A DNA stretch of 64,000 nucleotides from Candidatus Wirthbacteria bacterium (GTDB lineage: Bacteria; Patescibacteriota; CG2-30-54-11), in contig CAISZI010000046.1 of NCBI GenBank assembly GCA_903889905.1, positions 853 through 64,852 of the forward strand, written 5' to 3'. Positions 30,198 to 31,037 of the stretch are shown here, piece by piece (position 1 is the stretch's first letter; the number at the start of each line of letters is the position of its first letter). Under the pieces are notes generated by a model. It ran no database searches. It was not told the origin of the DNA and worked only from the letters and a program-made list of their open reading frames with translations. Made by a program: the position numbers and the translations under genes.

Positions 30198-30351
30198 AAG
30201 GACTCTCTTGATAATTTAAATAGACGAAGGTGCGATGACATACTAATAATTTGAATATGGTGACATTTGTGCAGAAACGCTTCAAACAAATATCACTCCA
30301 TTGTTTTCTTTTTGGCCACTTTTTATTTTTTAAAGAAAAAGTGGAATCTCA

Positions 30352-30455
30352 TGGAGCGGGTGACGGGAATCGAACCCGTATCTTCAACTTGGAAGCCTGC
30401 CTGGCGCTCCGGCAGACAAGCCTGCCTGGCTGACCGGCAGACAGGGCTGACATAA
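30352..30455 (-). pseudogene. tRNA-Gly 3' portion (positions ~21-76 including CCA) with a 49-nt GC-rich insertion in the anticodon stem-loop; lacks the 5' acceptor and D arm
   Basis: 45 bp (30352-30396) are identical to the 3' part of the intact tRNA at 30471-30515. The insertion lies between GTCAGCC and CTTCCAAG. Confidence 0.6.
30395..30444 (+). repeat. Tandem 2 x 25-bp GC-rich repeat (AAGCCTGCCTGGCGCTCCGGCAGAC / AAGCCTGCCTGGCTGACCGGCAGAC) making up the insertion in the tRNA fragment
   Basis: The two units differ at 3 positions. A partial third copy (CGGCAGACAG) sits in the 5' tRNA fragment at 30841-30850. Confidence 0.5.
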
Positions 30456-30468
30456 TATTATTTGATTT

Positions 30469-30543
30469 TGGAGCGGGTGACGGGAATCGAACCCGTATCT
30501 TCAACTTGGAAGGCTGACATAATAACCATTATACGACACCCGC
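30469..30543 (-). tRNA. tRNA-Gly (anticodon TCC), intact, with encoded CCA
   Basis: Manual fold of GCGGGTG (acceptor 5'), TCAGC/GTTGA anticodon stem, CTTCCAA loop (U33, TCC, A37), ACGGG-TTCGATT-CCCGT T-arm, then CACCCGC-T-CCA. Confidence 0.8.
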
Positions 30544-30548
30544 ATGGG

Positions 30549-30788
30549 TTAAACTGATTTCAAAAATCTCTTGCCTGCTGATGATTTTAGATATTTTTCG
30601 TGTTCTCGACCGGTCTTGTAATCAGGAAAAGCCTTTTGATAAGTCAATTCAAACGAGCCAAATTGACTAGTAAAAAAACTTTGCCCGCGCCGATGTTCAC
30701 TAAGTCGGCGATCTAAATTATTTGTCATTCCAATATAAATTTGGCCGCTTGCCTTATCACGGATTGCATAAACAGTTATTTCATTCAT
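30549..30788 (-). CDS. GIY-YIG nuclease-family protein (COG2827/UPF0213-like, 79 aa)
   Basis: MNEITVYAIRDKASGQIYIGMTNNLDRRLSEHRRGQ carries the GIY...YIG motifs plus the conserved R and E/H, and the length is typical for standalone GIY-YIG domains. ~38% GC. Confidence 0.85.
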   Translation of the reverse strand: MNEITVYAIRDKASGQIYIGMTNNLDRRLSEHRRGQSFFTSQFGSFELTYQKAFPDYKTGREHEKYLKSSAGKRFLKSV

Positions 30789-30816
30789 TTTTTTACCCCA
30801 ACTTAACAACGCTGCT

Positions 30817-30882
30817 TCTTCAACTTGGAAGTTTACCTGTCGGCAGACAGGGCTGACATAATAACCATTATACGACACCCGC
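30817..30882 (-). pseudogene. tRNA-Gly 5' portion (acceptor 5', D arm and anticodon loop, positions ~1-46) with a 19-nt insertion; lacks the T arm and 3' acceptor
   Basis: 33 bp (30850-30882) are identical to the 5' part of the intact tRNA at 30513-30545. The insert CTGTCTGCCGACAGGTAAA forms a small hairpin. Confidence 0.6.
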
Positions 30883-31037
30883 AAGCGCCTAACCCAGCAA
30901 ACTCAAATCATTTTAAGGTGCGTTTATCAAACTCACTTGTTGTGTATATCACCAATTGGTCCAGAAACTCAAGACATTTGTTGATATCGCCGCTAAGTTT
31001 ATACACAGGACCAGCAACTGTCAAAGGTGATTTTGAC

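Follow-up and report, generated by a model that had tools for sequence, protein, structure and literature searches.

The described system closest to the one reported here appears to be SegB of phages T4 and T6, a free-standing GIY-YIG homing endonuclease that is encoded in a cluster of transfer RNA (tRNA) genes and cleaves within such genes (PMC2330249; PMC13096335). It is preferentially inherited together with its neighboring tRNAs and, through homologous recombination, causes units of tRNA + segB to be amplified in tandem (PMC2330249; PMC13096335). Homologues of SegB in phages are also significantly co-located with tRNAs (PMC2330249; PMC13096335). The stretch of DNA analyzed here, 64,000 nt of contig CAISZI010000046.1 from a Candidatus Wirthbacteria bacterium (hereafter, the window), carries a gene for a 79-amino acid (aa) GIY-YIG nuclease amid one intact and two broken copies of a tRNA-Gly(TCC) gene (minus strand, 30352–30882). 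We observed the architecture of this locus, its recurrence at other tRNA genes, empty sites in related genomes, covariation within a short hairpin that interrupts the broken tRNA copies, a correspondence of protein lineages with tRNA isotypes, and the GIY-YIG fold of the protein. We consider it probable that the locus is a copy of a widespread, selfish, homing-type cassette that resides in tRNA genes, where tRNA halves serve it as homology arms and an intact tRNA is restored.

The family would resemble SegB in outline, since both place a GIY-YIG gene among tRNA genes. However, SegB is phage-borne, whereas the loci described here are chromosomal and encode a bare domain (79 aa in the window) from a different, minimal branch of GIY-YIG enzymes. 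Moreover, neither a conserved hairpin nor a precisely interrupted pseudo-tRNA has been reported from SegB loci, and both are found here. SegB itself is ~220 aa long, includes a DNA-binding part, and has a 27-bp site with the TpsiC motif. Enzymes of the I-TevI type share with the present family the catalytic fold, a nuclease gene at or near its target, and the occurrence of empty and occupied alleles, and the 12–22 nt between the hairpin site and the open reading frame (ORF) junction in this family loosely recall the offset between the I-TevI cleavage and insertion sites. Nevertheless, the family here has no intron RNA, linker, or DNA-binding domain, its fold is a poorer match to I-TevI (TMq 0.54), and its cassette restores the host gene by means of a carried copy, whereas an I-TevI-type intron does so by splicing. 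In the full-text literature searched (subscription-only articles excluded), we found neither the hairpin nor any association of small GIY-YIG genes with bacterial tRNA genes described. The kind of element is known, namely the tRNA-associated GIY-YIG homing elements, and there is a real chance that the pairing of hairpin and nuclease is new.

A tRNA-Gly gene divided around a nuclease gene

Read along the minus strand, the locus begins with positions 1–31 of a 5' pseudo-tRNA-Gly (30852–30882), identified by alignment and by a 33-nt exact repeat with the intact tRNA; this piece is the promoter-side half of the original tRNA-Gly gene. It is interrupted at tRNA position 31/32 by a hairpin unit, H1 (CCTGTCTGCCGACAGGTAAA; 30832–30851), and continues with positions 32–46 (30817–30831), a 15-nt proximal patch between hairpin and ORF that was placed by alignment. 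A 28-nt spacer follows (30789–30816), read from the sequence as purine-rich, with a GGGG stretch before the ATG that we take as a putative ribosome-binding element. The GIY-YIG nuclease gene, 79 codons plus stop, occupies 30549–30788 (Pfam PF01541), and 5 nt past its stop codon begins an intact tRNA-Gly(TCC) (30469–30543; ARAGORN; 65.7 bits with Rfam), which is separated by an 11-nt spacer read from the sequence (aaatcaaataa, 30458–30468) from a 3' pseudo-tRNA-Gly. The latter opens with positions 20–31 (30446–30457), a 12-nt proximal patch defined by alignment and by a 23-nt exact repeat with the 5' fragment. It is interrupted at the same position 31/32 by two expanded hairpin units of 25 nt each in tandem, H2 and H3 (30421–30445 and 30396–30420), and ends with positions 32–75 (30352–30395), a 44-nt exact repeat of the intact tRNA that is the terminator-side half of the original gene. 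The cassette therefore sits at position 31/32 of the old tRNA-Gly(TCC) gene and comprises all that lies between positions 31 and 32, with hairpins on both sides; in an alignment of the three tRNA copies, this insertion point is ambiguous by one C.

Three exact repeats tie these pieces together: 44 nt shared by 30352–30395 and 30469–30512, 33 nt shared by 30512–30544 and 30851–30883, and 23 nt shared by 30435–30457 and 30841–30863. The last, which the initial annotation did not list, is common to both fragments and consists of tRNA positions 20–32 plus the first 10 nt of the insert. Exact repeats of 33–44 nt are not expected by chance in 64 kb. The initial annotation of this locus had the minus-strand order of the four parts right, as both reading and alignment confirmed, and it correctly set the intact tRNA 5 nt after the ORF stop; ARAGORN calls tRNA-Gly(TCC) at 30543–30469 (minus strand) as the only tRNA of the window. 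Its measurements needed small corrections. The repeat it gave as 45 bp exists as an exact repeat of 44 bp, and the 33-bp repeat has the length it proposed, but the coordinates of both were off by 1–2 nt, such that the strings at the coordinates first given are not identical. Similarly, the 5' fragment does cover positions 1–46 but holds an insert of 20 rather than 19 nt, and the 3' fragment with its insert is real but spans positions 20–75 (not ~21–76) around 50 nt (not 49). The ORF is indeed poorer in guanine and cytosine (GC) than its surroundings (0.362 vs. 0.504 for the window). Since an independent ENA assembly (L008, 1252 nt) appears identical, matching the window base for base in a side-by-side reading and encoding an identical protein, the locus is not an assembly artefact.

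Halves of a tRNA with inserts in the anticodon loop resemble the layouts of archaeal intron-containing or split tRNAs, and partial tRNA repeats are typical of integrated islands, so that the locus might be a functional split or intron-containing tRNA, or else the remnant of an integrase island flanked by tRNA attachment-site repeats. Both ideas are extremely improbable. A complete tRNA is present, the fragments are truncated and overlap at positions 20–46, and the insert pairs with itself and not with the exons, which leaves no bulge-helix-bulge motif. Rfam searches of the window at a relaxed threshold (E ≤ 1) and at the gathering threshold returned the tRNA only and no group I intron. Islands and prophages that target tRNA genes do regenerate an intact tRNA on insertion and leave a partial repeat at the far end, as here; however, the present cassette is only ~0.3–0.5 kb long, its repeat is interrupted by a hairpin, and 5' fragments are duplicated besides 3' ones, the commonest layout in the family being a duplication of the 5' part of the tRNA. 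The only ORF between the repeats is the 79-aa GIY-YIG ORF, with neither an integrase nor an HUH (Y1) transposase.

A scan of the locus for promoters and terminators gave weak promoter-like matches only and zero terminators, and no U-tract follows the hairpin on its 3' side. Directly after the 3' tRNA fragment, rather than after the intact tRNA, lies an AT-rich inverted repeat (ccac...gtgg; 30316–30344, minus strand), a candidate for the terminator of the original tRNA gene that was not called by the consensus terminator scan.

The protein matches the GIY-YIG family PF01541 with an E value of 3.6e-14 (53.3 bits vs. a cutoff of 22.6), and Y7, Y18, G20, R28, H32, and E64 are invariant across 39 homologues. 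An AlphaFold model (pLDDT 94.1) has the element order E-E-H-E-H-H of the GIY-YIG fold. All 79 residues belong to the catalytic domain, with no separate DNA-binding domain or linker. The best sequence-profile matches were the UPF0213 proteins 1zg2 (2.5e-10) and 1ywl (3.1e-09), followed by Slx1, and Foldseek likewise ranked 1zg2 first and the Slx1 nuclease domain next (TMq 0.70, root-mean-square deviation 2.1–2.3 Å), with I-TevI and UvrC behind; the top fold matches were GIY-YIG domains throughout. Matches to phage endonuclease families were weak (E 1e-4 to 2e-6) and covered part of the protein only. From its sequence and modeled structure, the protein can be assigned to the UPF0213/Slx1-like minimal GIY-YIG branch as a bare catalytic domain, and since it lacks a DNA-binding domain, a classical, sequence-reading homing endonuclease is doubtful. 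The UPF0213 (COG2827) proteins BH0048 (1zg2) and EF2693 (1ywl) and the Slx1 domain share with it a minimal GIY-YIG core and the same catalytic residues, but in the literature reached they have no described link to tRNA genes, pseudo-tRNA, or a cognate hairpin. In eukaryotes, Slx1 acts with Slx4 on branched DNA. Many database homologues bear odd N- or C-terminal extensions (e.g., PEWRNLPAGRQV and GRPVCRLTGRPACSRQA) that are a translated tRNA piece plus the palindrome described below.

Recurrence of the cassette and empty sites

An exhaustive HMMER search yielded 1944 homologues at E ≤ 1e-3, compared with 4 from a word-indexed protein search. A pattern derived from the invariant peptide EKYLKSGxG retrieved at least 512 confirmed relatives in species-representative genomes and at least 491 in metagenomes, and the best 80 from each collection were taken as loci. 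Family statistics given here refer to 174 loci with 194 homologous ORFs in 643 kb. The hosts belong to Patescibacteria, Bacteroidota, Ignavibacteriota, Omnitrophota, Cloacimonadota, Verrucomicrobiota, and Planctomycetota, with Niabella (including N. insulamsoli N803), Algoriphagus, and Robertkochia as cultured carriers among the Bacteroidota. The gene is present in complete genomes such as NZ_CP190246.1 (Niabella), OY829281.1, and OZ244952.1. A consensus-peptide query returned 3 viral loci only.

A tRNA lay within 150 nt of the ORF in 145 of 194 cases and was on the same strand in every one (145/145). It was downstream of the ORF in 69, contained the ORF's stop codon in 43, and was upstream in 33. 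Leu, Arg, and Gly(TCC) tRNAs predominated, with Asn, Met, and others also represented. For 132 of 136 ORFs, extra fragments of the adjacent tRNA were found across the ORF, more commonly in the order 5' fragment, ORF, intact tRNA (104 cases) and otherwise as intact tRNA, ORF, 3' fragment (33 cases); the window's locus unites both types of junction. An intact tRNA is always kept, usually in just one copy. The constant parts of the cassette are a GIY-YIG gene of ~80 aa, an abutting, co-oriented intact tRNA, and one or two truncated tRNA copies outside them that are split by a hairpin. The protein's closest relatives (55% identity) show the same arrangement beside tRNA-Gly(TCC). Across the family, the nearest neighbor of a protein shares its tRNA isotype in 106 of 137 cases (39% by chance) and its layout in 109 of 137 (63% by chance), and the protein clusters mix phyla, their lineages following tRNA isotype rather than host.

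Related genomes hold both occupied and empty alleles at one locus. In the Moranbacteria-like L255 and L256, an uninterrupted tRNA-Gly(TCC) stands at the syntenic site with no GIY-YIG gene, fragment, or cassette hairpin. There, an NAD_binding_1 neighbor that is 82% identical to that of L001 is followed after 58 nt by the tRNA-Gly(TCC) and then by a terminator-like GC-rich hairpin with a T run. The cassette is present in L001, L088, L251, L252, and L257–L262, including relatives whose neighbor gene is 75, 90, and 99% identical. For the synteny of the window itself, the distant L250, whose Rrf2 is 51% identical, has a plain tRNA-Gly(TCC) upstream of Rrf2 and is empty; an exact-sequence search with the window's Rrf2 neighbor matched only a 978-nt contig. 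Uninterrupted tRNA-Gly genes of the kind that the initial annotation had expected in related genomes thus do exist. Its central claim, a GIY-YIG element with its own complete tRNA inside a former tRNA-Gly gene, was likewise borne out, with more than 130 homologous loci built alike. Its picture of a homing-type invasion that duplicated the target is right in outline only: since the 5' and 3' fragments overlap by 27 tRNA positions (20–46) and each carries a hairpin, this is not a classical target-site duplication, nor, as noted above, is a classical homing endonuclease likely. Cleavage and homing are steps that we infer from the sequence.

The polymorphism also bears on whether the gene could simply be a housekeeping nuclease of the UPF0213/YhbQ type that is co-transcribed with tRNAs, its flanking fragments being decayed tandem duplications and its hairpins REP-like stabilizers or terminators of mRNA. 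The complete co-orientation and the 43 ORF/tRNA overlaps suggest co-transcription, the position of the hairpin relative to the ORF is 5' or 3' depending on the layout, and the nearest solved relatives are UPF0213 proteins. Nevertheless, a housekeeping role is highly improbable, given that the cassette is present or absent at one and the same locus, that loci such as L096 and L224 have several copies at different tRNAs, that isotype-tied clusters span phyla, that the ORF is low in GC relative to its host, that arrays contain pseudogenized copies, that the terminator scan found nothing, and that the hairpin lacks a U-tract.

Tandem arrays of units composed of tRNA, ORF, and pseudo-tRNA with hairpin occur in L091 (2337–3300, in the complete genome of Niabella insulamsoli), L138, L176, and L143, and include decayed or pseudogenized ORF copies; L143 has two 5' pseudo-tRNA copies upstream and one 3' copy downstream. 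Such arrays are as expected from repeated cutting and repair. In several cases, the last few bases before the 5' fragment duplicate the 3' end of the ORF, as would be expected if units had been re-copied repeatedly. L206 (380–960) contains repeated units of palindrome, 3' end of tRNA-Gly(GCC), and ~65 nt, which resemble footprints of lost cassettes since no ORF lies between them.

The arrays, together with the SegB precedent, would also fit a benefit to the host, in which nuclease-driven amplification alters tRNA gene dosage (as with SegB in phage T6) or supplies decoys against tRNA-cleaving toxins. The isotypes Leu, Arg, Gly, Asn, and Met include known targets of anticodon nucleases. This explanation is improbable, however: tRNA dosage is not raised by copies that are truncated and broken up by hairpins, there is usually just one intact copy, and close relatives have empty sites.

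Two cassettes at different tRNAs were found within 3 kb of each other at Ile and Phe in L096 (Patescibacteria), at Arg and Ser in L224, and at Leu and Met in L155, and a single genome can therefore carry several lineages. Where the stop codon falls inside the intact tRNA (43 of all 194 ORFs; e.g., L169, L203, L110, and L009), processing by RNase P would strip it from the mRNA. In the Arg class this stop is a TAG at D-loop positions 20–22, adjoining the hairpin site at 21–23.

The 20-nt hairpin

The inserts in the tRNA fragments are not incidental: a single conserved hairpin recurs in them, which characterizes the family as a whole and which the initial annotation missed. It is GC-rich and 20 nt long, with the consensus CCTGCCTGCCGGCAGGCAGG, and both inserts of the window are copies of it: the shorter insert (H1) is a variant of it, and the 50-nt insert consists of two expanded units. 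In H1, a 6-bp stem encloses a TGCC loop and is followed by a degenerate tail; the unit folds as DNA at −4.8 kcal/mol (z −5.5). H2 and H3, with a repeat spacing of 25 nt, each start with CTGTCTGCCG, as does H1, and fold into two stem-loops at −12.9 kcal/mol (z −1.4), a value equaled by 21 of 200 shuffles. In the closest relatives, the 5' tRNA piece is interrupted twice by a 20-nt palindrome, after position 12 by CCTGCCTGCCGGCAGGCAGG and at 31/32 by CCTGTCTGCCGACAGGCAGG. A hairpin nearly identical to H1, CCTGTCTATCGACAGGTAAA, occurs in L176. In AT-rich hosts the hairpin is kept but its sequence is not, as with ttacctaccaattggtaggt, also in L176.

A relaxed hairpin pattern had 165 matches in the 643 kb, 160 of them within 200 nt of an ORF and 5 farther away, and at least one hairpin was present in 106 of 174 loci. 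A few copies are intergenic and distant from the gene, and the 64 kb window has none outside the locus. Insertion is precise, with tRNA sequence running on across the hairpin without loss or duplication. Among 99 inserts, 95 can fold into a stem of 5 bp or more, and 81 lie within 4 edits of the consensus, the rest being other GC-rich hairpins. The insertion sites are loops or stem-loop junctions and are common within tRNA classes: 14/15, 15/16, 24/25, and 64 in Leu; 21–23 and 32/33 in Arg; 9/10 in Asn; and 12/13, 23, and 31/32 in Gly(TCC). Hairpin position is inherited within element lineages and is not scattered. The outer arm of the interrupted copy reaches the tRNA end in 76 of 93 cases, and the inner patch, from hairpin to ORF, measures 16 nt at the median (interquartile range 12–22). 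Compared with the intact copy, mismatches amount to 0.85% in the outer arm and 1.6% in the inner patch. We had considered that the inner patch was more diverged and hence derived from a donor, but dropped this idea when proper handling of fragment ends gave these two values.

Covariation among 20 distinct variants pairs positions 1–6 with 11–16, leaving a TGCC loop and a CAGG tail. In this offset register, 98.3% of cells are paired, double changes occur in 4 of 6 pairs, and 0 of 500 shuffles did as well. The full 10-bp palindrome was rejected as the conserved structure since its register was no better than shuffles, and a mirror register had intermediate support, because some units are inserted in the opposite orientation. 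Since covariation favors the offset 6-bp stem, the thing conserved is a single-strand hairpin and not merely a duplex palindrome. Between L001 and the nearly identical L002–L007, two bases of the D-loop hairpin have changed in concert (C5/G12 to T5/A12), and the changed hairpin is identical to the anticodon-loop hairpin 39 nt away; this swap suggests copying between hairpins.

The exact 20-nt palindrome was also found at 83 sites in 69 IMG/VR stretches (L012–L080; median GC 0.58), and some phage contigs have several copies (e.g., L078, and L047, L055, and L059 from one 29.5 kb contig). A permissive search with a hidden Markov model for homologous GIY-YIG proteins near these palindromes matched in 2 of the 69 stretches only, and clustering of ORFs near the hairpin in the same stretches revealed no shared protein family, the largest cluster reaching 5 loci of ordinary phage genes. 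Target-site duplication around the hairpin was rejected, as 51 of 77 phage sites had no direct repeat and none was seen in tRNA pieces. The palindrome also occurs within the variable loop of a full-length phage tRNA-Met in L052 (2239–2330; also in L015), just upstream of a large ORF. ARAGORN still calls this 92-nt tRNA-Met, which may function with an additional arm or may be disabled; a BLAST search of the tRNA and hairpin region against INPHARED gave no match.

Considering that the hairpin flanks the nuclease gene, it is possible, if doubtful, that the two form a pair like REP and RAYT, in which the 20-nt hairpin is both the mobile unit and the substrate of a structure-specific GIY-YIG enzyme and is installed or propagated where DNA folds, as in tRNA genes. 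Both the broken copies of the tRNA and the intact one linked to them would then be consequences, possibly an addiction or "cleave and rescue" module. REP/RAYT systems similarly place a short, conserved, GC-rich, hairpin-forming palindrome on the flanks of the gene for the enzyme that presumably acts on it. Several observations agree with such a pair: the hairpin is identical across phyla while the proteins are 35–62% identical to the search query, its asymmetric variant occurs in both orientations, it inserts at loops or stem-loop junctions, it appears away from the gene in phage DNA and even in a full-length phage tRNA, the protein's fold is Slx1-like, and the coordinated swap between L001 and L002 suggests hairpin-to-hairpin copying. 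On the other hand, RAYTs are HUH tyrosine enzymes whose REPs number in the hundreds per genome, whereas the enzyme here is a GIY-YIG hydrolase and its hairpins hardly occur outside the pseudo-tRNA pieces next to the gene, with 5 of 165 more than 200 nt away and zero other copies in the 64 kb window. GIY-YIG enzymes hydrolyze DNA, we know of none that carries out strand transfer, and hairpin position is passed on within element lineages. Tentatively, and with no more than a modest chance of being right, the hairpin might be the cognate DNA substrate of an Slx1-like minimal GIY-YIG enzyme, which would make the two a novel type of mobile system, a hydrolytic-nuclease counterpart of REP/RAYT or IS200/IS605 logic and a natural cross-phylum cleave-and-rescue drive. 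Such a system would write its hairpin into tRNA stem-loop junctions, disable the resident copy, and supply a linked intact tRNA, and the drive would cross phyla with tRNA sequence as universal homology arms.

A possible route of spread

If the locus is a homing-type cassette, as we consider probable, its nuclease would break an unoccupied tRNA gene, probably at a stem-loop junction of transiently folded DNA, considering that it is a bare Slx1/UPF0213-like domain and that the hairpin occupies junction positions. Recombinational repair would copy the cassette from an occupied copy, with the tRNA halves serving as homology arms. The cassette would supply the missing portion of the tRNA, such that the host keeps a working tRNA, and the tRNA promoter would drive expression of the cassette. 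The hairpin would mark the insertion point and split the leftover tRNA copy, and it is probably bound or cut by the nuclease. It may act by splitting the target in the leftover copy, by shortening the direct repeats that can delete the ORF, or as the nuclease's binding or cutting site. Since tRNA sequences are conserved, the homology arms would work across species, which fits the cross-phylum clusters, and the identity of the hairpin sequence across phyla argues that it is recognized by the one protein that is conserved.

Several points weigh against this route. Cleavage is a step predicted from sequence, and since the fragments do not differ in sequence from the intact tRNA, a nuclease that reads tRNA sequence would have no obvious self-immunity. 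A 79-aa domain with no DNA-binding module is also unlikely to read a long site. The homology arms alone could account for the tie to isotype, and a patch between hairpin and ORF that is this close to the local tRNA (1.6% mismatch) could equally have arisen by duplication on the spot, by ongoing conversion, or by import from a donor. Furthermore, the hairpin has a life of its own, being present in the 69 IMG/VR stretches, including the full-length phage tRNA-Met, with no homologue of the nuclease nearby. Finally, the percentages given for the family describe a sample drawn with one peptide pattern, the best 80 per collection.

If the homing-type reading is correct, the tRNA genes of Patescibacteria, Bacteroidota, Ignavibacteriota, and other phyla have been colonized by a very small selfish cassette that went unnoticed, and the association of SegB with tRNAs extends from phages to cellular chromosomes. 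The cassette would explain many calls of "pseudo-tRNA" or "partial tRNA", as well as over-extended predictions of GIY-YIG genes, and would be a compact natural case of a gene spreading via universally conserved homology arms. The pairing of an 80-aa nuclease with a defined 20-nt DNA hairpin would be directly testable in vitro and in the cultured carriers.

One further locus combines the cassette with an intron. In L069 (820–1420), on the contig that also holds L086, the tRNA copy located 3' of the GIY-YIG ORF ends after the anticodon stem, and the broken copy is followed by a group I intron (1182–1416; Rfam 86 bits). Upstream of the intron is a frame with CxxC and HH motifs, by eye a candidate HNH-like protein. 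Two different selfish elements appear to occupy one tRNA at this locus.

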